A stretch of DNA of 31,982 nt, from the IMG/VR virus record IMGVR_UViG_3300012013_000098, positions 1-31,982 of that record; one strand, written 5' to 3'. Positions within the stretch are counted from its first letter, which is position 1. Each line of letters begins with the position of its first letter. Source of the stretch: a virus. A program made the position numbers and the translations under genes. The notes beneath the pieces were generated by a model. That model was not told the origin of the DNA. It searched no databases and was given only the letters and a program-made list of their open reading frames with translations. Below are positions 1-31,982 of this stretch, piece by piece.

Positions 1-55
1 CGATAATGTCCTGGAAGGTATATTTACCTTTTTCCGGGTGGATAGAAGTATACCA
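1..55. repeat. 55-bp terminal direct repeat identical to 31928-31982 (circular-contig assembly overlap)
   Basis: Base-by-base identity between window start and end. The length equals a commonly used de Bruijn k-mer (55). Confidence 0.9.
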
Positions 56-214
56 TGAATCACACCAGCCGCCTTCTCCGAACCAGCATCTGTGGGTGCA
101 GCCGGTTGTTCTTACGGCTATAGTTGGGCGCCCTTGTCTCGAACCCTCCGATTGTATACACGGATACAATTCAATTAAGGGAAGTCGTTTAGTGTAATCT
201 TTAAGCCTGTTCAC
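1..214 (-). CDS. queE: 7-carboxy-7-deazaguanine synthase QueE, N-terminal part (continues across the circular junction into 31371-31982)
   Basis: Manual minus-strand translation from GTG at 214 gives (M)[71 protein letters not shown]. This joins in frame to MYDAHPH of ORF 31371-31925. It has a QueE-like IQSEG motif and a radical-SAM Cys cluster. Confidence 0.8.
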   Translation of the reverse strand, partial: MNRLKDYTKRLPLIELYPCIQSEGSRQGRPTIAVRTTGCTHRCWFGEGGWCDSWYTSIHPEKGKYTFQDII

Positions 215-611
215 GGGGTCTATAAATTACTTTAGACGACTTTGTTTCTGCTAGGGAAATTTGTGTTAGAGGTAAGTCGGTCTCGTTAACAATTCTAGTT
301 GCTAACCACACACATAGATTTTCCGCCGAAGTTATAAAGGGTAATTTTTTATATTCCTCCCCCATCATGTCCAGAACTGGGACGAGTGGGTCTTCTTCCC
401 AGAGTAAGAAGTAGTGACAATAACCTTTTAAGATGGGTTCTACTAGGGCGTCTATGTCTGAAAAGAGACATGTAATTGAATTGGTCTTTGATTGGAAATT
501 GAAATCGCATTCTATTTCGTAAGTGTGTCCGTGAATTCTCCCGCATTTTTCCCCACCTTCCGGATTACGGTGGGCTGCATAAAAGTGGTATTTTTTGTTA
601 ATTATAAACAT
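201..611 (-). CDS. queD: 6-carboxy-5,6,7,8-tetrahydropterin synthase (QueD, PTPS T-fold)
   Basis: 136 aa. FYAAHRNPEGGEKCGRIHGHTYEIE matches the QueD AAH...KCGR-x-HGH-x-Y signature. The 3' end overlaps the queE start by 14 nt. Confidence 0.85.
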   Translation of the reverse strand: MFIINKKYHFYAAHRNPEGGEKCGRIHGHTYEIECDFNFQSKTNSITCLFSDIDALVEPILKGYCHYFLLWEEDPLVPVLDMMGEEYKKLPFITSAENLCVWLATRIVNETDLPLTQISLAETKSSKVIYRPREQA

Positions 612-614
612 AAC

Positions 615-1769
615 TTAGTTGGTTAATAATTTAGTAATGTATTCTTGCTCGTGCCAGACATTTAGTTCCGGCCCGGTATAGTCGGTGCAGACAATAAAGG
701 CTTCTAACCTTCTGCCTAGGTCGGCCCGTTGGGCTAACCCTTTATCTAGAATTTTATAATTGTCGGTTGCCTGGTTTAAAACGAAACCGGCCGAAGCAGC
801 ATCGAATGCATAATACTTAAATGTAATATCGTGCATCTCGGTAAAGCATCTAAAGTCTGGGTAAACTAAACAACAACCTAAAGCGTTTGCCTCTAGTGCT
901 GTCCAACTAACATAGTCCTGAAGGGAACAGTTAAATTGTATCTTAGAAGACTTTAACTCGTAGTAGTAATCTTCTTTAGTTAAGTTGGTTAGAATAGTAA
1001 ACCGGGGTTCTTGTTCTGCTAGTGCATAGAAGTCTTCCATAACCCCTTTTAAGTTGCTTCTAATGCTAGTTCCGGAAGTTGTAATCGTAAAGGTCCAGTC
1101 TTTATTTTCATCTAAGAAGTTTTTAATAACCTTCATTAAGAAGTAGGGGTTCTTTTCTTTATCGAACCGGCTAGTAAAGATAACGTTATTTTTTCTAGCC
1201 ACTTTATCCGGCGCGGTATCTAGAACATCTTGTAAGTGCAGAGGTAAAGACACAACGTGAATTGGTGCTTCGAACCCGGCCTGTCTTAACTGCTCTTTAT
1301 GAATAGTACTCCCAACAAATATTCCAGACATTCTTTTATCAATACCTAGCTCAAAAGATCTCATCCAGGACTTCATTGCAGAAGTAAAGTCGTATTCATC
1401 TACAGATTGGGCGTGCAACATAGAAAAGACTTTTACCCTTTTCAAATTGTATAAGTCTAAAGCATAGAAGACTGATTCAATACCCGGCGTCCAGAAGTCC
1501 TGTAAGAAGATAACATCTCCATCTTTTACTGCGCCGGTGTTTATTGCGTCCAGAAGTAAAGCACACTGGTCCATAGCCCATTTACCCCTACCAACAGCAT
1601 CTAGAACTACACCAACGTTAATGTTATCCCCACTCTGAATTGGCTTTAAATTAACAAAGTTGTATTCGTGGCTATATTCTGCAAATGCTTCCGGCATCCA
1701 GATGTTGGACAGCTGGTAAGTGTATCTTTCTTTTAACGGCTCTAGGCCGAAGTACCAAATTGTTTTCAT
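615..1769 (-). CDS. GT-B fold glycosyltransferase-like protein (GT4-like C-terminal half)
   Basis: 384 aa. VIFTSRFDKEKNPYFLMKV and DYVSWTALEANALGCCLVYP (a D-x7-E variant of the EX7E motif) resemble retaining GT-B enzymes. ATGA overlap with the methyltransferase stop and a 3-nt gap to queD. Confidence 0.5.
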   Translation of the reverse strand: MKTIWYFGLEPLKERYTYQLSNIWMPEAFAEYSHEYNFVNLKPIQSGDNINVGVVLDAVGRGKWAMDQCALLLDAINTGAVKDGDVIFLQDFWTPGIESVFYALDLYNLKRVKVFSMLHAQSVDEYDFTSAMKSWMRSFELGIDKRMSGIFVGSTIHKEQLRQAGFEAPIHVVSLPLHLQDVLDTAPDKVARKNNVIFTSRFDKEKNPYFLMKVIKNFLDENKDWTFTITTSGTSIRSNLKGVMEDFYALAEQEPRFTILTNLTKEDYYYELKSSKIQFNCSLQDYVSWTALEANALGCCLVYPDFRCFTEMHDITFKYYAFDAASAGFVLNQATDNYKILDKGLAQRADLGRRLEAFIVCTDYTGPELNVWHEQEYITKLLTN

Positions 1770-2356
1770 TTTATTATTGCCCAGGAACTATCTACAAAAG
1801 TTAAGTGGGGTAAACCAACAACCTCATTTACCGCCCGGCTAACCTCTAACCTTAATTTATGATTCTTATCGAAGTCGATAATTTCTTCTCTCTGCTTATC
1901 TGTATACTCGATTAGGTAATCGTGGCCGGATATAACCCCGCCTTGTTTTACCTTAGGGGTAAACAATTCCAGGTCTAATTTTACCTGCTCGTAAGTGTGA
2001 AGTCCATCAACATAAAGACAGTCAAAGTAATCATCTTTAAATAAGTCCACTATGTCCTGGCTATAGTACTTACACTTTACTAAATTTCTAACGGCTAGGG
2101 TTTCGTTATTGAATGCTTCTTCTACTAGAGATAAGTCGGTTTCGTTTATTAAGTCGTTATCATCTATCAATTCGTCCCACGGGTCAATTGCAACAATCAT
2201 AACATCTTCACCTAGAACTTCTTTCATCATTCTAATACTTTCTCCGGCGTAAGAACCTATTTCTAAAATCTTCTTTACGTTGTTCTGCTTTAAGAAGTCG
2301 CAGTAGTCTAAAAATCCTTCCCATAAGAAAGAACCTTCTGGTCTCATTTCAATCAT
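1766..2356 (-). CDS. Class I SAM-dependent methyltransferase (Methyltransf_24 / TylF-CmcI-like O-methyltransferase family)
   Basis: 196 aa. Motif I is ILEIGSYAGES, and YVDGLHTYEQVKLDLELFTPKVKQGGVISGHDY is typical of this family. ATGA overlaps on both sides. Confidence 0.7.
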   Translation of the reverse strand: MIEMRPEGSFLWEGFLDYCDFLKQNNVKKILEIGSYAGESIRMMKEVLGEDVMIVAIDPWDELIDDNDLINETDLSLVEEAFNNETLAVRNLVKCKYYSQDIVDLFKDDYFDCLYVDGLHTYEQVKLDLELFTPKVKQGGVISGHDYLIEYTDKQREEIIDFDKNHKLRLEVSRAVNEVVGLPHLTFVDSSWAIIK

Positions 2357-2766
2357 AAGATATCGTCTTTATAGTCGTTAGGTTGAACTGCTAGCCCATT
2401 GTATTTAGTAAAGCAAATTACGTGATAAGGTTCTGTCTTATCTATAAAAACACTATCAGTCGGTTTTAGATTAAAGATGTTATCATCGACAACTCTATAA
2501 ATTAGATGGGTTCTAACTTTAATGTTGGGGGTAAGTAAATGATAATTTTTATTATTACATTCAACAGAAATCATATAGTTGGAATTAATACACAGATCTT
2601 CTATTTGTTCAACCCCGCCTTTTGTTTCTAAAAACTCTTTTGTAAAGTAAAGATGCTTTACCTTTACCGGGTCTATCTCACCAATTTCATATCTAATGAA
2701 CTTAGTTTCAATTCCGTAAAGTCTACCCTCTACTTCTTTTCCGTACCAGTTATTTTTCTTTTGCAT
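2353..2766 (-). CDS. Hypothetical protein (137 aa) inside the modification operon
   Basis: I prefer the ATG at 2766 (MQKKNNWYGKEVEG...), because the track start at 2817 would overlap the upstream gene by 49 nt. ATGA overlap with the methyltransferase start. No family recognised by eye. Confidence 0.5.
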   Translation of the reverse strand: MQKKNNWYGKEVEGRLYGIETKFIRYEIGEIDPVKVKHLYFTKEFLETKGGVEQIEDLCINSNYMISVECNNKNYHLLTPNIKVRTHLIYRVVDDNIFNLKPTDSVFIDKTEPYHVICFTKYNGLAVQPNDYKDDIL

Positions 2767-2768
2767 TA

Positions 2769-3101
2769 TTATTTTATTAGGTAAGCACCGTTCTCGTTGT
2801 CCTCTAGAACTTCGCACGCTGCTAAATTAAATTTATCAATTAACATCTCGGCTATCATTTCACAGGACTTAGGACCGAAATCAATTCCTCTTGGTGTTGA
2901 CCAATTTAATAACCAGGCTTGCATTTCCCTTTTTAGAACAATAAATTCGATATCTCTATCTGCGTGGGAAACTTCTTTCCAGGCTTTAATCCAGAAGACG
3001 TGTCTGTGTGGGTAATTTAAAAAGTCTACTTCTGGAATATCGCATCCGGGCCAGTGGTGTAAGCCTTCTACTTGAAGGGTAATAACTATTTGTTGTCTCA
3101 T
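2769..3101 (-). CDS. Second PTPS/QueD-like T-fold protein (paralog, function unknown)
   Basis: 110 aa from ATG 3101 (MRQQIVITLQVEGLHHWPG...YPHRHVFWIKAW). The H...HRH pattern parallels AAH...HGH of QueD. ATGA overlap with the dpdA stop (3098-3101). Confidence 0.45.
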   Translation of the reverse strand: MRQQIVITLQVEGLHHWPGCDIPEVDFLNYPHRHVFWIKAWKEVSHADRDIEFIVLKREMQAWLLNWSTPRGIDFGPKSCEMIAEMLIDKFNLAACEVLEDNENGAYLIK

Positions 3102-3997
3102 CTTAACGGGTTTGTTTTCCAATCTAATTTTCCAGCCTCGTACTGTTCCTGAATTCCTGCAACTAATCTAAGTTGACTCTCTGCACCTATAGCCATAAAT
3201 ACCCTTAACCCGTTATTGTAAGAATACTTCTGGTATTCTAAAAAGGCTAGGGTAGACATATAGGCATTTAACCCCTTCATCCCCGACCTATAATTTCTAA
3301 AGTCCAGGGCTTCTTTGGGCGAGGCCTTCACCTTTTCGAAGGCCTCTATTAACCCCGGAGGTAATTTAAGCTTCTTACCGGACACTAGGGCTTTATTGTC
3401 TATTGTCTTTAGACCAACGCCGGGTTCGAACCAGGGAATAAGTCCATACACAACTGAATGTCCCCAGGAAGCAGAGTCGACTGAATGAAGGGGAAGTTGA
3501 TACATTTCCGGCCACTTAACGAAACCTAGCCCGTGGGTTTTGCAGGGGTTATTTTTATAAACCCGTTGGTATCTCTGTTGCATCCATTCTGCTTTAGAAA
3601 TTGTTCCGCCTGCAACACACACGTGTTCATTTTTATTTGTAGCATCTTTTAGATAAGCCCAGTCGTTATCTAATCTAGTAAAGACAAACATAGGATTAAA
3701 TCCCCGGGCGAGCATTGTTTCATAATTGTATTTAGTTTCCTTATCGTTGTTAATAACATCCAGCATAACATACTTTTCTGTATAAGGAGCCCATTGCTCT
3801 AAATAAGTACAATACCCATTTAAATCTAATCCTTTCCCCCCGGTCTTAGCGTTGAAAATTGTATAGGCCCCTGAGTCGATCATAGTGTTAGCTTGACCCG
3901 ACATCGATATAGACTTAAACAATTTAGAAAACTCTTCGTCTCTACTTAGATAAGCATACGAACAGAGCACATTGAAATAAGTGTTATTGGAAATCAC
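3098..3997 (-). CDS. dpdA: DpdA-like DNA guanine transglycosylase (TGT superfamily)
   Basis: 299 aa with a GTG start. Blocks MIDSGAYTIF (catalytic-Asp DSGA motif), YVMLDV, VCVAGG, THGLGF and SVDSASW are as in phage DpdA. Embedded among queD, queE and folE. Confidence 0.7.
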   Translation of the reverse strand: MISNNTYFNVLCSYAYLSRDEEFSKLFKSISMSGQANTMIDSGAYTIFNAKTGGKGLDLNGYCTYLEQWAPYTEKYVMLDVINNDKETKYNYETMLARGFNPMFVFTRLDNDWAYLKDATNKNEHVCVAGGTISKAEWMQQRYQRVYKNNPCKTHGLGFVKWPEMYQLPLHSVDSASWGHSVVYGLIPWFEPGVGLKTIDNKALVSGKKLKLPPGLIEAFEKVKASPKEALDFRNYRSGMKGLNAYMSTLAFLEYQKYSYNNGLRVFMAIGAESQLRLVAGIQEQYEAGKLDWKTNPLR

Positions 3998-4523
3998 AGT
4001 CTGGATATTTTTCAGTTAAGAATTCCATAATCACCCCTTTTATTTCGTCCATCTGATCTTTATAAGTTTCCGACACTACAATCTTTATAGTTAGATGCTT
4101 GTCGCCGCCTGGAAGGGGCATATCTAAATCCTCCATAATCTCTTCTAAGTTGTCCCAGTCGTGTTTAATTACTTTTAGACCCCAGTCTTCTAACAAATCG
4201 ATATTCCAATCTTCTTGCAGGACTTTCCAGTCCCATTCTCCGAATGAAGAGTTGTCTTTAATAACGAACTCTTTCTTTTGATCTTCTGTTAACCCAGTTG
4301 CTCTTTGAATTGAAATTGTTTTAAGTCCTGCTTCTTTCGCAGCCTTTAATCTCATGTTCCCACCCAGGACTACTAAATCTTCGTCCACCACTAAAGGTCT
4401 TAAATTTAACATCTCTGGAAAGTCCTTTATCGACTTAACCAGTTTTTTAAATTGTTCAGGATTAATGAACCTCGGGTTTTCTGGGTTCTCCTTAACTTTT
4501 TCAATATTGATTATTTCTATCAC
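3984..4523 (-). CDS. ParB N-terminal (ParB/Srx-like) domain protein
   Basis: 179 aa with a GTG start that sits 3 nt after a TATAG box. ENPRFINPEQFKKLVKSIKDF...LRPLVV...VVLGGNMRLKAAKEAG matches the ParB-like nuclease/NTPase domain. 14-nt overlap with dpdA. Confidence 0.7.
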   Translation of the reverse strand: MIEIINIEKVKENPENPRFINPEQFKKLVKSIKDFPEMLNLRPLVVDEDLVVLGGNMRLKAAKEAGLKTISIQRATGLTEDQKKEFVIKDNSSFGEWDWKVLQEDWNIDLLEDWGLKVIKHDWDNLEEIMEDLDMPLPGGDKHLTIKIVVSETYKDQMDEIKGVIMEFLTEKYPDCDFQ

Positions 4524-4526
4524 CTT

Positions 4527-4540
4527 CTATATATCAATTT
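4527..4540 (-). promoter_or_regulatory. Start-proximal box TTGATATATAG-N3-GTG (class B motif)
   Basis: Minus strand reads AAATTGATATATAGAAG then GTG. The TATAG-N3-start geometry is the same as at 6699, 7451, 9573 and 9513. Confidence 0.45.
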
Positions 4541-4562
4541 CTGTTTTCATCTAAAATTTAGA

Positions 4563-4582
4563 CTTTTTAGTCCTTTTTAGTC
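4563..4582. repeat. Tandem 10-bp direct repeat CTTTTTAGTC x2
   Basis: Read directly: 4563-4572 and 4573-4582 are identical. Confidence 0.85.
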
Positions 4583-4606
4583 TTACCCTCTTGATATTAT
4601 CAGATT

Positions 4607-4635
4607 TAATTAAATAACTAATCGTTATTTAATTA
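4607..4635. repeat. Perfect 12-bp inverted repeat TAATTAAATAAC-N5-GTTATTTAATTA
   Basis: Read directly. Arms at 4607-4618 and 4624-4635. Confidence 0.85.
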
Positions 4636-4649
4636 TAACCCAACTTATT

Positions 4650-4672
4650 AATAAACGGATAAACCGTTTATT
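4650..4672. repeat. Perfect 9-bp inverted repeat AATAAACGG-N5-CCGTTTATT
   Basis: Read directly. A third copy, AACCGTTTATT, lies at 4818-4828. Confidence 0.85.
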
Positions 4673-4888
4673 TTCCGTTCCGATAATTATTTTAATTATC
4701 TTTACCTTATTTTATAATCAAAGGCGGGGCCTCACGAATTTAATTTTACTCTACAAGTTTAATAGTGCCAATCTGAACTGCAAGATAACGTCCCGCCGGG
4801 CAAAATTCGTAAAAAGTAACCGTTTATTATCGATTCAGATGGGGCTTTAGATACTCAACCGGTACTATCCTGTCGTAATTCTCCTACC

Positions 4889-4903
4889 GTTTCCGGGTTT
4901 CCG
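4889..4903. repeat. Short iteron-like repeat GTTTCCG x2 (8-bp period)
   Basis: Copies at 4889-4895 and 4897-4903. A related GTTTCCCG lies at 4932-4939. Confidence 0.6.
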
Positions 4904-4963
4904 TCTTGATTTACTTCTACAGTTTAAGAAGGTTTCCCGATTCGAGGGTCGATTAATTTAAAT

Positions 4964-4995
4964 ATTATATAGCCATCAGGAAGAAGTATTTCCCT
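4964..4995 (-). promoter_or_regulatory. Class A promoter candidate AGGGAAATACTT-N14-TATAAT
   Basis: Minus strand reads AGGGAAATACTTCTTCCTGATGGCTATATAATATT. It shares the 12-mer AGGGAAATACTT and identical spacing to TATAAT with 28805-28836. It fires into the 430-nt untranslated region upstream of the ParB-like gene. Confidence 0.5.
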
Positions 4996-5011
4996 ATGTC
5001 CAGAACTTTTT

Positions 5012-5215
5012 TTAAATTATTTCCTGGGCTAACTTCTTTACCCGATTAACCACTGCTCTCCGGCAAGAACCGCAGCCGGTATCCCTTCTATTTTCCCCGG
5101 TGGATAAGTTAAAGATTTTATAAATAACCGCCATCTCCTCGGGCTGCCAGACTTTTTTATTCAACACAAACCACTCTCTGTGTTCTGTTAATAAAATCTT
5201 TGCCTCTTCGTTCAT
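5012..5215 (-). CDS. Hypothetical protein (67 aa)
   Basis: ORF with an ATG start, tightly packed after the upstream gene. No family recognised. Confidence 0.5.
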   Translation of the reverse strand: MNEEAKILLTEHREWFVLNKKVWQPEEMAVIYKIFNLSTGENRRDTGCGSCRRAVVNRVKKLAQEII

Positions 5216-5226
5216 CTTAGTATTCG

Positions 5227-5628
5227 TTAATCCACTTGTCCGTCTGTATCGACATCAGCGATGCTGTCCCCGCCGTTAGCAGGCTCGGAAGTATTCCCGT
5301 CTTCCATAAAAGCAAGGTTATCAATAAGGTCGTCCAGAACGTCAGACACTGGGGACAATCCAAGGGTTTCGTCCTCGTTAACTTCGTCCTCGTTAAAAAC
5401 CATCGATACGGCTGGCTGCTCTGGATTACCGGAATTGTCGCCGCAAGAAGAACAGCCTGTAGTAGTGCTGTGATCAGTTGTAAAAAATTCATCTATAATT
5501 TGTATTTTCGTTTTAGGAGATATTTGTAATCTCTCTCTTTGTCTCATAACATCTTTTTCTAAAGATGCTTCGGGGGTAATAAAGAAAATTCCCGTTCCTT
5601 TAAACTGCCATTTAATCTGTTTTATCAT
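5227..5628 (-). CDS. Hypothetical protein with a strongly acidic C-terminal tail
   Basis: 133 aa. The tail NEDEVNEDETLGLSPVSDVLDDLIDNLAFMEDG...DSIADVDTDGQVD contains a 15-bp-period repeat (TCGTCCTCGTTAA at 5369-5381 and 5384-5396). The start overlaps the sigma-like gene's end by 17 nt. Confidence 0.55.
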   Translation of the reverse strand: MIKQIKWQFKGTGIFFITPEASLEKDVMRQRERLQISPKTKIQIIDEFFTTDHSTTTGCSSCGDNSGNPEQPAVSMVFNEDEVNEDETLGLSPVSDVLDDLIDNLAFMEDGNTSEPANGGDSIADVDTDGQVD

Positions 5629-6115
5629 TATCTGTATTTTTTTTATTTTCTAGAACCAGGGCCATAATATGTCGTCTGATCCTATTGATTGTGAGAGAGA
5701 CTGATGTCCTCGGTATTTGAGTTGCCCTAGCCAACGAAGAAACCGTGTGGTTCTCGTTAACGAAGGTGTCGAACAGCATTCGGTCATACCAGGAAAGTTT
5801 GGCGAGTTCTTCTCTAACTTTGTCTGCTTTTTCCATATAGCTAGGATCTTCATCATAAACTGTGTCTTCGAATTCGCCGGTAAATTCCACATCTTCTTTT
5901 CTATAAGTATGAAAGAACTCTGAGGTGGTAGATTTCCATTGGTTCATCATAATACGAACGATAAAAAAGCGGGCGCCCCCCGACAAGATTATTGCTTTGC
6001 AGTCTTTCCTGCGAAGAAATTCGTCTAGACAGTAGTGGAGTAGTTCGTCTGCTAAAGGGGAATTTTGGGATATTCTTAAAGCTGCTTCGTTTAAGTTTCC
6101 GTAATTCTCTTTCAT
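5612..6115 (-). CDS. Sigma-70/ECF-like RNA polymerase sigma factor candidate
   Basis: Region-2-like PLADELLHYCLDEFLRR...ARFFIVRIMMNQW and region-4-like LSWYDRMLFDTFVNENHTVSSLARATQIPRTSVSLTINRIRRHI. I prefer ATG 6115 (MKENYG) because the track start at 6187 is a GTG that overlaps the upstream gene by 46 nt. Confidence 0.55.
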   Translation of the reverse strand: MKENYGNLNEAALRISQNSPLADELLHYCLDEFLRRKDCKAIILSGGARFFIVRIMMNQWKSTTSEFFHTYRKEDVEFTGEFEDTVYDEDPSYMEKADKVREELAKLSWYDRMLFDTFVNENHTVSSLARATQIPRTSVSLTINRIRRHIMALVLENKKNTDNDKTD

Positions 6116-6141
6116 AAATTGTTCTACTTCCACGTTCCACT

Positions 6142-6483
6142 TTAGTCCATTTGAAATACGTCTTCGGGTCCGAATGAACCTTCGCACACATCATTTACAT
6201 CCGAGAAGGTAAAAGATAAAGATCTAGCACCGTCGTCGAAATTTTTATTAATTTTAATGTAGCCCTTTAACTGGAGAAGATCTAGCGTAGTAGCAATATC
6301 AAAAGGTGGAATATTTAATTTATAACCCAACCACTCGTTGCTAGAAAAACAACATCTGTTTTGGATTGACCAACCGAATACGTAATTTAAAAGCATTTTT
6401 TCCATAAAGGTAAGCCCGTTTTCTCTAAAAATCCACGGGTCAATTCTCCAAAGGATTGCTGCTTCTGTTTTATCGTCTGTCAT
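6142..6483 (-). CDS. Winged-helix/HTH DNA-binding protein candidate
   Basis: 113 aa. LTFMEKMLLNYVFGW...FSSNEWLGYKLNIPPFDIATTLDLLQLKGYIKI resembles HTH_36-type wHTH domains. TAATG overlap with the upstream gene. Confidence 0.4.
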   Translation of the reverse strand: MTDDKTEAAILWRIDPWIFRENGLTFMEKMLLNYVFGWSIQNRCCFSSNEWLGYKLNIPPFDIATTLDLLQLKGYIKINKNFDDGARSLSFTFSDVNDVCEGSFGPEDVFQMD

Positions 6484-6695
6484 TATTCTGCTCCTATCAT
6501 TTTACCTAAAGTGTCCAACGAACACGCTGTCCAGATTTGGTTGTCTAATCTTACTGGATCATGTCCCAGTACAACTACATTCCCCGAAGGGGTTAACTTT
6601 ACTTCTTGAATTAACCATTCACGCCCTTCGATTGTGAGGTAAATTCCGTCAGGCTTTTCTAGCCTTTGTTTTTGTGTTCTTATTACGAATGCCAT
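6483..6695 (-). CDS. Hypothetical protein (70 aa)
   Basis: ORF preceded by the class B box (TATAG-N3-ATG). Confidence 0.5.
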   Translation of the reverse strand: MAFVIRTQKQRLEKPDGIYLTIEGREWLIQEVKLTPSGNVVVLGHDPVRLDNQIWTACSLDTLGKMIGAE

Positions 6696-6698
6696 ATA

Positions 6699-6713
6699 CT
6701 ATATATTCTTTTT
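6699..6713 (-). promoter_or_regulatory. Class B box AAAAAGAATATATAG-N3-ATG
   Basis: The 15-mer CTATATATTCTTTTT (plus strand) is identical to 7451-7465. It ends 3 nt before the ATG at 6695. Confidence 0.5.
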
Positions 6714-6735
6714 TAATTTAACCGAAAAATCTGGT

Positions 6736-7248
6736 TTAGTCTTCTTTTATTCTTTTACGAGCCCCTTTTAACCAGCTGGGGATTGTAAGGAAGTCGTAAA
6801 GTTCTTCTTTACTTATTCCCCATTTTTCCACTCGGGTCTCTATTGTTTTTAAATACAACGCAGAAGCAATTTGATAGTTTTTTTTAATTTTTGCAAGCCT
6901 TAATTGCTCCTGCTTAGATAAATTAGATTGAAATAATAAATTTTCTTTTCTTAAATCTAAAATATTACCATTAGCATATAAAAAGTGGGTGCCGGTTAAA
7001 ATTTCCCCGTGATAACATTCCCAGGCAATTTTAGTTTTAGATCCTATTTGTCTATTGATTTTTTTATTTTGCATTGTATTACCTTTACAGTTTTGCCATA
7101 ATACGAACTCTTCGTCATCATAATAAAGAACCCCTATTTGATTACATTTTATATCATAAAGAGGGTGATGAAAGAAAATTTCTTCTTCGTGGTCTTCCAA
7201 CATAGGAAACTTACTCTCGAAAAAATGTTTCGCAGGATAAACAATCAT
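6736..7248 (-). CDS. Hypothetical protein with a degenerate HNH_3-like segment
   Basis: 170 aa. IAWECYHGEILTGTHFLYANGNILDLRKENLLF resembles the HNH_3 layout (WE...G...DH-x-dGN..NN...NL) but lacks the catalytic His. Confidence 0.4.
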   Translation of the reverse strand: MIVYPAKHFFESKFPMLEDHEEEIFFHHPLYDIKCNQIGVLYYDDEEFVLWQNCKGNTMQNKKINRQIGSKTKIAWECYHGEILTGTHFLYANGNILDLRKENLLFQSNLSKQEQLRLAKIKKNYQIASALYLKTIETRVEKWGISKEELYDFLTIPSWLKGARKRIKED

Positions 7249-7249
7249 T

Positions 7250-7447
7250 TTACGGCTGGACAGTTTTCCAGGACTTGCGGGTAATAATTCTATAAATCTG
7301 AGTTTTACTAAGATTGGTTATTTCTGCTAGAGAAGCATAAGTGTATCCGCCTCCACGATATAATCCAATAATCTGTTTTACTTCTGCTAGAGTAAGTTTA
7401 GCATTTCCGTTATTTTCTCCTTCGAAATTACAATTAATCTTTTTCAT
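7250..7447 (-). CDS. Small HTH DNA-binding protein
   Basis: 65 aa. GENNGNAKLTLAEVKQIIGLYRGGGYTYASLAEITNLSKTQIYRIITRKSWK matches the HTH module often attached to phage HNH endonucleases. Preceded by the class B box. Confidence 0.55.
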   Translation of the reverse strand: MKKINCNFEGENNGNAKLTLAEVKQIIGLYRGGGYTYASLAEITNLSKTQIYRIITRKSWKTVQP

Positions 7448-7450
7448 CCT

Positions 7451-7465
7451 CTATATATTCTTTTT
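7451..7465 (-). promoter_or_regulatory. Class B box AAAAAGAATATATAG-N3-ATG
   Basis: Identical 15-mer to 6699-6713. It lies directly downstream of the terminator at 7482-7508 and 3 nt before the ATG at 7447. Confidence 0.5.
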
Positions 7466-7470
7466 CTAAA

Positions 7471-7508
7471 AACATAAAAAACCCCGGGAAGTTATGAGAA
7501 ACCCGGGG
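7471..7508 (-). terminator. Rho-independent terminator
   Basis: Minus strand reads CCCCGGG-N13-CCCGGGG (7-bp GC stem) followed by TTTTTTATGTTTTT. Confidence 0.75.
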
Positions 7509-7564
7509 AATGTAATTATGCGAACCGCCCGATAAAGAGAATGTTATCGAACTTTGTATTATAG

Positions 7565-7693
7565 TTAAGGCTTGTCTTTTTGTTTCGCCTTAGAAAAATA
7601 CCTTTCGTAAAGGTAATTCTTTAATTTTTTTTCGTTAGTCAAAGAAGACTTATAGCACTTCGATAATCTAACTTCTAAAGTTTTAATGTCCAT
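7565..7693 (-). CDS. Unlisted 42-aa Lys-rich ORF (MDIKTLEVRLSKCYKSSLTNEKKLKNYLYERYFSKAKQKDKP)
   Basis: Manual translation. Its ATG overlaps the stop of the 213-aa gene as TAATG, and the terminator follows. Too short for the ORF track. Confidence 0.3.
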   Translation of the reverse strand: MDIKTLEVRLSKCYKSSLTNEKKLKNYLYERYFSKAKQKDKP

Positions 7694-8334
7694 TAATTAG
7701 TAGGGGCTTGATAAAAATTCATTCCAAAGGGCTCGCAGCCTTCTGTGCCACCATACCAGCCAACATTCGCAGAATCACGGGTTCCAACCATAGTTCTTTT
7801 TTTCCACGCATACGGCTGTTTAGGAGTAACAAGGGACCCGAAGTAGGGGTTGCCACGCTCTGGAAGCTGTCCATCAAGAACCTGAGGCGCCACGTAGGCC
7901 TGGTAATTTCCTGGATGGAGGACCATCCATTCTATCATTCTTTTAATGTAAGTTTCCCCGGCCGACCTTACTTGTTCCATTAGAAATTTTAATTCTTCTA
8001 AAGTAACTGATTCGGAGTTTTCCGACGTTGGTGATAAAACAGACTTGTTAAAAATTTTATATTTCAAAAAAGGTAAAGCGTAAAAAAGCCCCCAATTACA
8101 AAGTGCAGACCCAATATAATTATCGAGCAGAAATTGATTATCTGCAGATACGGTATTTGTTATAACTTCGTTTTTTAATTGAATATAGTAGGTAGCCCCG
8201 ATGTAATTTTGAAGCACGATATCTTGACTTTGTAAAATATACGGAATTAGGTCAAGCGGACTTACATTATTATTTATAGAAGTAAAAGATTTTAACTTTT
8301 CTTCTGAGACCAATAAAGCTAGTTGTTGTGCCAT
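7693..8334 (-). CDS. Virion protein, possible head-tail connector/adaptor
   Basis: 213 aa immediately downstream of portal. The N-terminal pattern (VSPLDLIPYILQSQDIVLQNYIGATYY) resembles phage head-completion/adaptor families. This is a weak call. Confidence 0.35.
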   Translation of the reverse strand: MAQQLALLVSEEKLKSFTSINNNVSPLDLIPYILQSQDIVLQNYIGATYYIQLKNEVITNTVSADNQFLLDNYIGSALCNWGLFYALPFLKYKIFNKSVLSPTSENSESVTLEELKFLMEQVRSAGETYIKRMIEWMVLHPGNYQAYVAPQVLDGQLPERGNPYFGSLVTPKQPYAWKKRTMVGTRDSANVGWYGGTEGCEPFGMNFYQAPTN

Positions 8335-8336
8335 AG

Positions 8337-9512
8337 TTATTCGATTGCTGTTGTTGCTTCTTGACCTGCTACTTGATCACCTTCTTCGTTAAAAATCTTT
8401 TTAGGCTGAATAAACAGTTCCGTATCGTAGCCGTAATATAACATTAACCTGTCAAATACCTTTAATAACGTTGCTTGGTCGGGTTGAATAACGGTAGAAA
8501 CAAAGTGTTGATAAGACACAGTAATCTCGTCTGCGTTATTGGTGAACCCATTAGCTCCTAAGTCCTTAATACCCAATAGGAGGGGTGATGTAATTCTGTG
8601 TCCCGTAAGAATTCTAGAGGTAATCCTATTTTCAAGCGTGATATAGTAATCATCATTGGCGGAGTCTAAAGCCGTCACTTCTAAATTATGATCTTTATCG
8701 TCTGCGAAAGACAAGAAAAACTTGCCGGCCCCGTCAACCCCGGAAAAATTAGATGCAATTTCTTGGTAAATATCTTGGCGTTCTTCTGGTGAAGGAATAC
8801 CATTATGAAATTGTAAAACCAGGCTAGGATTTAAGCCATTCATAAGGTTCCAGTAGTGAAAACTAGATATAGATACGTCCACCTGGATATCAGTTAAACT
8901 TCCTGAATATGAAGGCATTGGGTAGTATTTCTGTCCTGGGTTATGTTTAAAGAAATACAGAATTTGGTTCGGGTATGTTGGTGCGTGTGCCGGGTCAAAA
9001 GACTTATAACCTTTAGGCTTATAAACATCTTTTTTATACTTAGTCCAGTCTGCTGAATAGTAATACCATTCAACTCTGTCTGTGTCGTAATCAATATGTC
9101 CAGAACGGATATCATTAAAGTCCATGTTAAACATGTCTATAATTTTATCGCCTGTCTGGTTCCAAATAATATTTAAAGCAAAGCCGCCGTAAATAATATA
9201 ATCTAGAGCCGCCCTGTCGAATACATCATTCCAAGACTGCATATAGTTTGCTCTTTTAAGAACGTAGTCAAGGTCGGGGTTTAACGTTTTTAGGCCTTCC
9301 CCGATTGTTGCAATATGCTTCGACACAATGCAAGAACGGTTCATAGCCGAGCCGTTATACAGCGGAGTAATTAGCGCGTTAGGATATAAGTTATCCGCTC
9401 CGTAATTTATCCAGCTCTGTCCTTTTACTTCGAAAACCCTAGCCAAAGTCGGGTCAGGAACCGCCTGGGAAAACTTTTGAAAAGAAGTTTTAGATTTAAA
9501 TTCTTTGTTCAT
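8337..9512 (-). CDS. Portal protein
   Basis: 391 aa. N-terminal WINYGADNLYPNALITPLYNGSAMNRSCIVSKHIATIGEGL and C-terminal ENRITSRILTGHRITSPLLLGI...FVSTVIQPDQATLLKVFDRL match portal family patterns. Confidence 0.65.
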   Translation of the reverse strand: MNKEFKSKTSFQKFSQAVPDPTLARVFEVKGQSWINYGADNLYPNALITPLYNGSAMNRSCIVSKHIATIGEGLKTLNPDLDYVLKRANYMQSWNDVFDRAALDYIIYGGFALNIIWNQTGDKIIDMFNMDFNDIRSGHIDYDTDRVEWYYYSADWTKYKKDVYKPKGYKSFDPAHAPTYPNQILYFFKHNPGQKYYPMPSYSGSLTDIQVDVSISSFHYWNLMNGLNPSLVLQFHNGIPSPEERQDIYQEIASNFSGVDGAGKFFLSFADDKDHNLEVTALDSANDDYYITLENRITSRILTGHRITSPLLLGIKDLGANGFTNNADEITVSYQHFVSTVIQPDQATLLKVFDRLMLYYGYDTELFIQPKKIFNEEGDQVAGQEATTAIE

Positions 9513-30544: not shown

Positions 30545-31366
30545 TTATTGTTTAATTAGATGTAAGAACTCCTGCCTCGCCTTCTGGTCCTCTTTGAATA
30601 CACCCAGCATCTTAGACGTTGTGGTGTGGGTATCGTGCTTCTTTACTCCCCTCATAGCCATGCATAGATGCTGGGCTGTTATAACAACGGCTACACCTTT
30701 AGCATTTAACTCTTTCATTAGCCTTTCTGCGACTTGGGTGGTTATTCTTTCTTGGTTCTGGAAAGCCCTAGCATATAAGTCCACACAACGGGCTAGTTTA
30801 GATAACCCGACTATCTTACCGTTGGGAATGTATGCAACGTGGGCGTGTCCGAAGAACGGTGCTAGGTGGTGTTCACATAGAGAGTAGAACGGAATGTTAG
30901 TTTGGATAATCATTTCATCTGTGCCCTCAGCGTCGAATGTCGTAAAATTAAACTCTTCTGGGTTAAGAAACTCTTTTAGAAACTTAATGTATCTTCTTGG
31001 TGTTTCTTTTAGCCCTTCTCTATTAGGGTTGTCGAAGTATTCTATTACTCTTAGCATATTCTCTTCTACTTCTTTGTGTCCTTCTTGCTCCCATGGAAAT
31101 TGTATCCACTGTTGAACGGGCTCTTCCCTTTTGTCTATTAGTCCTATAAACGGTTTATCTGGAAAGAGTGCATTATATTTAGATTGGGTTGCGCCGGAGT
31201 CTATTAAATCATCTATAATTATGTCCGCCTCTTCTGGGCTGTCCACTGGGTTAAGCATTGCTGCTATGTATTGTCCACCTCTAGGTACTCCATAGTAGGT
31301 CTTTGTTCTGTCTAGAGGGAGGATAAGTTGCTTTATCTCTTCCCAGGTTATTTTTCTTTCTTGCAT
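30545..31366 (-). CDS. folE: Fusion of a Gpt-like purine phosphoribosyltransferase domain (aa 1-95) with GTP cyclohydrolase I FolE (aa 96-273)
   Basis: The N-terminal part ITWEEIK...[13 protein letters not shown]...[12 protein letters not shown]...WIQFPWEQ parallels E. coli Gpt (VTWDM...AVSRGG...IVIDDLVDTGGT...WIEQPWDM). The C-terminal part [11 protein letters not shown]...[21 protein letters not shown]...GLSKLAR...QNQERIT...HLCMAMRGV is canonical FolE. Confidence 0.8.
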
Positions 31367-31370
31367 AGTG

Positions 31371-31982
31371 TTAAACTGCTCTTTTGGTATCGAATGCTAT
31401 GATGTGGTCGCGGCCGGTCCAGCAGTATCCCATCTCGAGGGCCTTTTCAATTGATTTAGCATACTCGTGAATTAGAGTTTGGCGCGTATCTCCCGCCGGC
31501 ATTAACCAGGTTTTTGTTTTAGGTATACCCATGTCTTCTCGGAAGGTCTCTATTTCACGTAGTGTGGTAGGAGCCCCATCCCAGACTGGTTTAAAATGAT
31601 AATCCTTATGGAATAATAAGGTTTGTTTTATAGCGTCTAAATTTAACCGGTCCCTATTATGGGTTTGTATAAACTTCTCGTCCACTACATTTCCTTTGGG
31701 CGTTAGGATACCTAATTTAGGTATAGAGTTGGAAAACTTAGGCGATAATGAAATTAAATCTATAGGGTAATCTGTTTCTAGGAAGTGTGAACCTTCTGTC
31801 TCCATAGTAATAAAGATGTTCCTTTCCTGTGCGAAGTGGGTTAACTCGTTAACTAGTTCTGGGTGCATAGTTGGGGAGCCGCCGGTTAGCATCATTTCTG
31901 TGATGTGCGGGTGGGCGTCATACATGTCGATAATGTCCTGGAAGGTATATTTACCTTTTTCCGGGTGGATAGAAGTATACCA
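31371..31982 (-). CDS. queE: QueE, C-terminal part (N-terminus at 1-214 across the junction)
   Basis: The frame stays open upstream of the listed ATG 31925 through the window end. The sequence [13 protein letters not shown]...ETEGS is QueE-like (LTGGEP analogue). Confidence 0.8.
31928..31982. repeat. 55-bp terminal direct repeat identical to 1-55
   Basis: Base-by-base identity with the window start. Confidence 0.9.

Follow-up and report, generated by a model that had tools for sequence, protein, structure and literature searches.

A clade of phage glycosyltransferase genes keeps close company with the genes that make 7-deazaguanine and insert it into DNA. We analysed the whole of IMG/VR viral record IMGVR_UViG_3300012013_000098 (31,982 nt, hereafter the window), in which four open reading frames (ORFs) on the minus strand between dpdA and queD encode a QueD-like T-fold protein (DpdL), a 137-aa protein (orf137), a methyltransferase (MT) and a glycosyltransferase (GT). 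An earlier, sequence-only reading of this DNA described them as four extra genes wedged into a core pathway; they lie where that reading placed them, but DpdL is a known component of the pathway, and together with GT, and in most cases orf137, it makes up a conserved module that recurs between or beside the pathway genes in hundreds of phages with no other relationship, leaving MT as the only occasional gene. The module very probably belongs to the deazaguanine pathway and is not merely linked to it physically. As to what it makes, our best guess, offered tentatively, is that the base which ends up in DNA bears a sugar, and would be a glycosylated, and in this phage methylated, 7-deazaguanine.

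The association is evident from cultured phages, where GT is found in 18 records and DpdL in 29, with DpdL within ~1 kb of GT in every one of the 18 GT records. These represent about 16 distinct phages, and their hosts span many phyla; GT sits within folE/queD/queE/TGT clusters in a cyanophage that infects Synechococcus PCC 7942, in Burkholderia phage BCSR5, Xanthomonas phage X1, Acidovorax phage ACP17, the jumbo phage PA5oct and Sinorhizobium phage Phosso. Homologues of GT number 826 by our count, and at least 270 IMG/VR contigs encode relatives of it, from which 85 distinct loci were analysed; a locus was taken as informative if it offered at least 1.2 kb of sequence for the upstream test or at least 1.3 kb for the downstream test. 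DpdL or orf137 lies no more than 1.5 kb upstream of GT in 60 of 60 informative loci (DpdL in 55, orf137 in 50), and DpdA is present in 67 of 67, being of the type found in X1, ACP17 and PA5oct, immediately downstream of GT, in 56 loci and of the window's own type in 11. The linkage holds across different gene orders and unrelated phage backbones. Among cellular genomes, sampled as one per species for 185,579 species, there were four matches to GT, all on short contigs of metagenome-assembled genomes (MAGs) with the same neighbours; the clade is essentially absent from cellular genomes.

These counts bear directly on the possibility that virion proteins or host glycans are what GT and MT serve to glycosylate, and that the DNA-modification genes are their neighbours only in a physical sense. 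GT4 and Methyltransf_24 enzymes do turn up often in pathways that build glycans, and remote relatives of MT sit among glycosyltransferases, in a glycan-type cluster, at one metagenomic locus (L023). Nevertheless, the presence of DpdL or orf137 (60/60 loci), of DpdA (67/67), and of the same company in all cultured records (18/18) and MAG contigs (4/4), together with start and stop codons that overlap inside the operon and a GT clade encountered in no other context among the loci examined, makes this explanation hardly credible. The tie to the 7-deazaguanine pathway drawn by the sequence-only reading is thereby upheld, the co-occurrence being the opposite of a pattern in which GT and MT homologues reside mainly in phages without dpdA.

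By sequence, the 110-aa T-fold protein is DpdL, the already-named predicted decarboxylase of 7-carboxy-7-deazaguanine (CDG), which gives substance to the earlier suggestion that one of the small proteins could be a decarboxylase. It is 39% identical over its full length to CGPG_00067 of Cellulophaga phage phiST, the founding DpdL (E 2e-22), and matches the unnamed family phrog_17812 (E 1.2e-22), with no match in Pfam. Its motif LNYPHRHVF fits the DpdL signature LxxxHRHxF, which stands where QueD has CxxxHGH (PMC10516641), so that Leu replaces the catalytic Cys of PTPS and QueD. The genomic context is likewise that of DpdL, with DpdA, FolE, QueD and QueE in the same operon and QueC absent. The role of DpdL as CDG decarboxylase is itself a prediction, and heterologous expression yielded no 2'-deoxy-7-deazaguanine (dDG) (PMC10516641).

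The identity of the T-fold protein also matters for a second alternative, in which FolE, a PTPS-like T-fold protein and GT would together produce a pteridine glycoside, as in cyanobacteria and Chlorobium, as a form of auxiliary metabolism. Pterin-glycoside pathways do combine GTP cyclohydrolase I with a PTPS homologue and a glycosyltransferase, Synechococcus PCC 7942 is the host of one GT-bearing phage, and the PA5oct cluster contains a gene like those of short-chain dehydrogenases/reductases (SDRs). Against this, the module is always accompanied by QueE and DpdA, whose roles are peculiar to deazapurines and to insertion into DNA; the T-fold protein has the Leu in place of the catalytic Cys; no SDR of the sepiapterin-reductase type was found among the window ORFs scanned; and the hosts are spread over many phyla. 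We judge a pteridine glycoside very improbable, and both it and an unrelated glycan fit the linkage data poorly.

The other small protein, orf137, represents a new alpha/beta protein family and is probably a functional partner of DpdL. Although it had been taken for an orphan, a profile search of 1.84 billion proteins recovered 99 cluster representatives of its family at E<=1e-3. It has no match in Pfam, PHROG or NCBIfam; its AlphaFold2 (AF2) model (pLDDT 94.9) is alpha/beta, has no PDB fold match (best Foldseek E 0.15) and retrieves a single unnamed protein of 155 aa from BFVD. A tblastn search of the cultured phages with orf137 gave no match at E<0.1, and iterated profiles located diverged homologues directly upstream of GT in BCSR5 and X1. 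In two metagenomic proteins, P0197 and P0228, DpdL and orf137 are fused, with orf137 at the C-terminal side, and the P0197 locus has the order DpdA-[DpdL::orf137]-GT. The phiST protein CGPG_00066 was considered as a diverged orf137 and rejected (hhalign probability 0.7%); it is an AAA_18 kinase.

The predicted structure of GT is that of an intact GT4-like GT-B enzyme. The AF2 model (pLDDT 84.5, pTM 0.86) shows the two Rossmann domains of the GT-B fold, and among its 324 Foldseek matches in the PDB at E<=1e-3 GT4 enzymes rank at the top with TM scores of about 0.6, the best being the retaining GT4 enzymes ManT (7qsg), glycogen synthase, BshA, MshA and PimA (E about 1e-11 to 1e-9); the GT-B assignment made from the letters alone is thus borne out. 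GT matches Glyco_trans_1_4 in Pfam with E 1.3e-5, and some homologues at 55-60% identity carry a precomputed Pfam match. Invariant in the family are R201, K204, K206 and the pair D285-x7-E293, an EX7E-like motif with Asp at the first acidic position (D-x7-E), and the family sequence SRxDKEKNP aligns with the GRLDHNKNP motif of WlaC; both are candidates for the nucleotide-sugar-binding motifs of GT4 enzymes (EX7E-like and GRxxxxKG-like). GT is predicted, with a good measure of confidence, to be catalytically active as a glycosyltransferase.

MT, which had been assigned to Methyltransf_24, does match that family well above its cut-off (PF13578, 64.7 bits vs 26.3, E 1.6e-17) and is best described, from its sequence, as an optional tailoring gene whose product resembles metal-dependent (COMT-like) O-methyltransferases. 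Residues E32, G34 and G38, D117, H120, H145 and D146 are invariant in its family, and the last four align with the DGGH...HD residues of the structure 6g7d, so that they may serve as metal ligands. The profile of the family matches 3ntv (1e-5), 6g7d (2.3e-5) and caffeoyl-CoA O-methyltransferases in the PDB, and 8k1f weakly. We take 6g7d to be MeT1, a sugar 1-O-methyltransferase, and the group of 3ntv, with 8k1f, presumably includes tRNA 5-hydroxyuridine and other nucleobase O-methyltransferases.

MT is rare, occurring at ~5% of GT loci. Both in the window and in nine contigs of a different, PolB-encoding phage lineage it occupies the place between DpdL and GT; the loci with a close homologue so placed are L018-20, L041/43/44/46, L112, L113 and the P0132 contig. 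Remote relatives in the ACG-2014f cyanophage stand in a context that is uninformative, and a scan of viral contigs with a close pattern for MT returned nothing. One further homologue is found on L021, a related metagenomic phage contig whose ribonucleotide reductase genes and QueE contain inteins (467-3379, 7478-9406).

In other lineages the neighbours of GT are sugar-tailoring or carbohydrate-type enzymes. A PIG-L-like deacetylase (E 4.7e-5, below cut-off) is encoded near GT in BCSR5, and X1 has a homologue of that protein at the equivalent position (E 2e-15); a second GT4-like protein adjoins GT in BUCT-ZZ01, and an SDR epimerase/dehydratase-like protein adjoins it in PA5oct. In both BCSR5 (L002 5981-7525) and X1 (L003 6338-7526), a PP-loop/PAPS-reductase-like gene is followed by the PIG-L/LmbE-like gene or its homologue and then by orf137-GT. 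By analogy, this gene set resembles the glycosyltransferase, deacetylase and ligase logic of mycothiol and bacillithiol synthesis and suggests a variant based on an amino sugar.

DpdL also occurs in phages without GT. Cellulophaga phage phiST and Chryseobacterium phage MA9V-3 share the layout DpdL / AAA_18 P-loop kinase / DpdA3, in which the kinases (CGPG_00066, L017 7320-7799; L102 8342-8812) are 32% identical; the 2023 description of phiST recorded no other deazaguanine phage with a homologue of CGPG_00066 (PMC10516641). Faecalibacterium phage Roos has the order ParB-DpdL-DpdA. DpdL forms the C-terminal part of longer ORFs in MA9V-3 (294 aa, L102 7458-8342) and Vibrio phage Bakedbeans (393 aa, L103 7191-8372), and the N-terminal parts match neither a known family nor each other.

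The genes of the window suggest the following route to a modified base. By homology, FolE, QueD and QueE produce CDG from GTP, and synthesis halts there, since the QueC-type PP-loop motif SGGxDS is absent from all six frames of the genome; DpdA, probably aided by the ParB-like protein, exchanges a base in DNA for a deazaguanine. CDG would be processed by DpdL with orf137, and the GT4 enzyme would move a sugar from a nucleotide-sugar to the deazaguanine derivative, either on the free base or a precursor ahead of insertion by DpdA, or afterwards on DNA. In this phage the Methyltransf_24 enzyme would O-methylate the sugar or the C7 substituent, so that virion DNA would contain a methylated 7-deazaguanine with a sugar attached, as a guard against restriction. 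Taken as a whole, with all its conjectural steps, this explanation seems to us possible, if just short of probable.

Its extension to other phages is a little more tentative: those with DpdL-(orf137)-GT4-DpdA may all carry a sugar-bearing 7-deazaguanine, with the sugar tailored per lineage and orf137 a new enzyme that creates or presents the acceptor. The sugar would then be O-methylated in the window phage, de-N-acetylated in BCSR5 and X1, and extended by the second glycosyltransferase in BUCT-ZZ01. Two published observations are consistent with a sugar-bearing base: PA5oct DNA resists restriction enzymes that cut at G-containing sites, the chemical nature of its modified G not having been determined in that work (PMC12191111), and dpdL and dpdA of ACP17, a phage that carries GT, gave no dDG in E. 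coli, from which the authors suggested that further enzymes may be required (PMC10516641).

Several points weigh against a sugar on the DNA base. A 7-deazaguanine formed by DpdL would offer no hydroxyl for O-glycosylation, and phiST, which has DpdL and plain dDG but no GT, indicates that GT is not needed for dDG. The scores of GT fall below the curated Pfam thresholds (25.9 bits vs 27 and 20.8 vs 26.4 for Glycos_transf_1/Glyco_trans_1_4), and orf137 was not found near GT in ACP17, PA5oct, BUCT-ZZ01 or Phosso. GT and MT are acidic (computed isoelectric points 5.2 and 4.4) and DpdA is basic (8.9), so small-molecule substrates fit the two enzymes better than DNA does, a weak argument against their acting on DNA directly. 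The methyl acceptor, too, need not be a sugar, given the nucleobase O-methyltransferases that the 3ntv group appears to hold, and on L021 the MT homologue adjoins QueD, in 9.9 kb of sequence that shows no GT.

[quoted passage not shown] The acidity of both enzymes and the want of a hydroxyl acceptor in dDG agree with this, as do the small acceptors used by the closest structural relatives of GT (BshA, MshA, sucrose-phosphate synthase and SenB) and a linkage that is tightest to DpdL and orf137 and persists across several DpdA types. On the other hand, a glycosylated intermediate in deazapurine synthesis is without precedent, phiST produces dDG without GT, and the lineage-specific deacetylase, methyltransferase and second glycosyltransferase better suit a sugar that is kept in the final product. 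We consider action on small molecules alone unlikely, while giving it serious weight.

A separate question is whether MT acts directly on the deazaguanine substituent, producing a methyl ester of the CDG carboxylate or methylating C7 or a nitrogen. The COMT-like group of 3ntv and 8k1f, which includes a tRNA 5-hydroxyuridine O-methyltransferase, and the L021 arrangement would both allow it; but in the 10 other examined contexts with a close homologue MT lies directly between DpdL and GT, sugar-tailoring enzymes occupy the equivalent place in other lineages, and the second-best PDB match, 6g7d, is probably a sugar 1-O-methyltransferase. We regard direct methylation of the base or its substituent as unlikely.

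The module lies in an operon of nine genes in the order ParB-DpdA-DpdL-orf137-MT-GT-QueD-QueE-FolE (Table 1), tightly packed throughout, with overlaps or 2-4-nt spacers at the junctions. Chaining of the four ORFs to dpdA and queD by ATGA overlaps, as first described, holds at three of the five junctions (DpdA/DpdL, orf137/MT and MT/GT); the other two, DpdL to orf137 and GT to QueD, are spacers of 2 nt and 3 nt. Further out, the end of the ParB-protein gene overlaps the start of DpdA, and the start of queE overlaps the end of queD. Conserved homologues exist for all four ORFs, which shows them to be real genes and not chance ORFs.

Table 1. Genes of the deazaguanine operon and the terminal repeat in the window (coordinates in nt).
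Feature	Coordinates	Strand	Basis
55-nt direct repeat	1..55 and 31928..31982		exact match; assembly overlap
ParB N-terminal-domain protein, opening the operon, 179 aa	3984..4523	-	Pfam ParB_N, PHROG
DpdA-family DNA guanine transglycosylase, 299 aa, GTG start	3098..3997	-	phrog_887
DpdL, QueD-like T-fold protein, 110 aa	2769..3101	-	homology to phiST CGPG_00067; LNYPHRHVF
orf137, 137 aa counted from ATG	2353..2766	-	own profile family
MT, Methyltransf_24 S-adenosylmethionine (SAM)-dependent methyltransferase, 196 aa	1766..2356	-	Pfam PF13578
GT, GT4-like GT-B glycosyltransferase, 384 aa (AF2 prediction)	615..1769	-	AF2 model, Foldseek
QueD (6-carboxytetrahydropterin (CPH4) synthase)	201..611	-	Pfam PTPS, TIGR03367, CxxxHGH
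queE 5' part, GTG start at 214	1..214	-	joined ORF, TIGR03365
queE 3' part (CDG synthase)	31371..31982	-	weak Radical_SAM match, QueE profile
FolE (GTP cyclohydrolase I) with N-terminal extension of ~95 aa	30545..31366	-	GTP_cyclohydroI

The window begins and ends with the same 55 bases, indicating that the contig is a circular or complete (or terminally redundant) phage genome of ~31,927 bp. The queE gene crosses the circular junction: joining 31371-31927 to 1-214 gives an uninterrupted ORF of 256 aa that matches TIGR03365 (E 1.5e-15), and the QueE profile matches both fragments. A 200-nt stretch after queD that might pass for non-coding was rejected as such, being the 5' end of queE. QueD matches Pfam PTPS (E 7.1e-19) and TIGR03367 (E 3.9e-14) and has the canonical CxxxHGH motif, here within EKCGRIHGH, and FolE matches GTP_cyclohydroI over residues 112-271 (E 4.8e-64).

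DpdA matches phrog_887, 'queuine tRNA-ribosyltransferase' (E 4.8e-26), and by tblastn 119 phage records annotated as TGT or DpdA at 24-29% identity, with no Pfam TGT match; membership of DpdA3 was rejected, the BLASTP comparison with phiST CGPG_00065 giving E 0.73. The ParB protein scores slightly below cut-off in Pfam (ParB_N, E 1.5e-5) and has ParB-like PHROG matches down to 1e-26. The ParB-DpdA pair is kept in 14 related loci and in Faecalibacterium phage Roos, and the ParB protein is possibly analogous to DpdB, the partner of bacterial DpdA.

The N-terminal extension of FolE (~95 codons, about 31082-31366) resembles a shortened xanthine-guanine phosphoribosyltransferase (XGPRT). It has a phosphoribosyl pyrophosphate (PRPP) motif and weak matches to the XPRT structure 5xtk in the PDB (E 7e-4) and in NCBIfam, and a purpose-built XGPRT profile fails to detect it. 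Stand-alone Pribosyltran genes occur in 17 related loci, including those of BUCT-ZZ01 and PA5oct; such a phosphoribosyltransferase could act in salvage of the guanine that DpdA releases, or produce a deazapurine nucleotide. Elsewhere the window encodes a terminase, a portal protein and an XkdF-type protease, and at 5612-6187 a 191-aa ORF whose C-terminus looks, by eye, like the helix-turn-helix of sigma-factor region 4 (no Pfam match at E<=0.01). Rfam and tRNA scans of the window returned nothing, promoter and terminator counts were not above those of shuffled sequence, so that no internal transcription signals can be claimed, and megablast of window positions 1-8000 against the phage collection found no match.

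To our knowledge, phage DNA has so far yielded eight 7-deazaguanine derivatives, none of them sugar-bearing. The literature that we searched describes neither a sugar-bearing 7-deazaguanine in DNA, in agreement with the sequence-only reading, nor a glycosyltransferase linked to phage deazaguanine clusters. A sugar on the final base would, if confirmed, be the first case in any DNA of a purine analogue that is glycosylated, and the module would open a new branch of deazaguanine chemistry, supplying a nucleobase-linked GT4 enzyme, a protein of new fold and a tailoring methyltransferase. The module could explain the failure of DpdL and DpdA of ACP17 to yield dDG in E. coli, and suggests a candidate identity for the modified G of the PA5oct jumbo phage. 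Such modifications set the sensitivity of phages to restriction enzymes, CRISPR, type IV nucleases and newly found anti-deazaguanine glycosylases, with relevance for phage therapy and for DNA-modification tools, and with several hosts and phages in culture the prediction is directly testable.

The closest known system is the DpdL/DpdA system that produces dDG in Cellulophaga phage phiST (Hutinet et al. 2023, PMC10516641). It shares with the window FolE-QueD-QueE, the lack of QueC, a DpdL homologue and a DpdA-family transglycosylase in one cluster; it differs in having an AAA_18 kinase, DpdA3 and a MazG-like gene, and no GT, orf137 or MT. A sugar on a 7-deazaguanine derivative in nucleic acid, as proposed here, has a counterpart in animal tRNA, where QTMAN and QTGAL glycosylate queuosine after base insertion by a TGT-family enzyme (PMC12518689). 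There, however, the nucleic acid is RNA and the sugars are received by the cyclopentene-diol hydroxyls of queuosine, which the window phage, without QueC, QueF, QueA and QueG, cannot make. We know of no glycosylated 7-deazaguanines in nucleic acid other than these mannosyl- and galactosyl-queuosines.

The alpha- and beta-glucosyltransferases of phage T4 (AGT and BGT) are also phage GT-B enzymes that put a sugar on a modified DNA base as protection against restriction, but their acceptor is the hydroxymethyl group of a pyrimidine, 5-hydroxymethylcytosine (hmC). GT of the window is acidic; neither T4 enzyme is among the top 50 Foldseek matches of GT, and the window ORFs scanned showed neither an hmC pathway nor a thymidylate-synthase-like gene. 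The pathways of the deazapurine nucleoside antibiotics toyocamycin and tubercidin, in which a phosphoribosyltransferase acts on preQ0 or CDG, resemble the window in combining a deazapurine derived from FolE, QueD and QueE with a phosphoribosyltransferase-type gene; their products are free nucleosides, and they are not known to involve DpdA or a GT4 enzyme. GT4 enzymes of small-molecule metabolism are 10-15% identical to the window GT and use malate, inositol phosphate or oligomannosides as acceptors, not a nucleobase. The pairings in which they occur are nevertheless mirrored in these phages: the transfer of GlcNAc followed by PIG-L-type deacetylation, carried out by MshA/MshB and BshA/BshB, in the GT4 and PIG-L-like genes of BCSR5 and X1, and that of ManT (PMC9883506) with MeT1, from the mycobacterial methylmannose polysaccharide pathway, in the GT4 enzyme and putative metal-dependent O-methyltransferase of the window.

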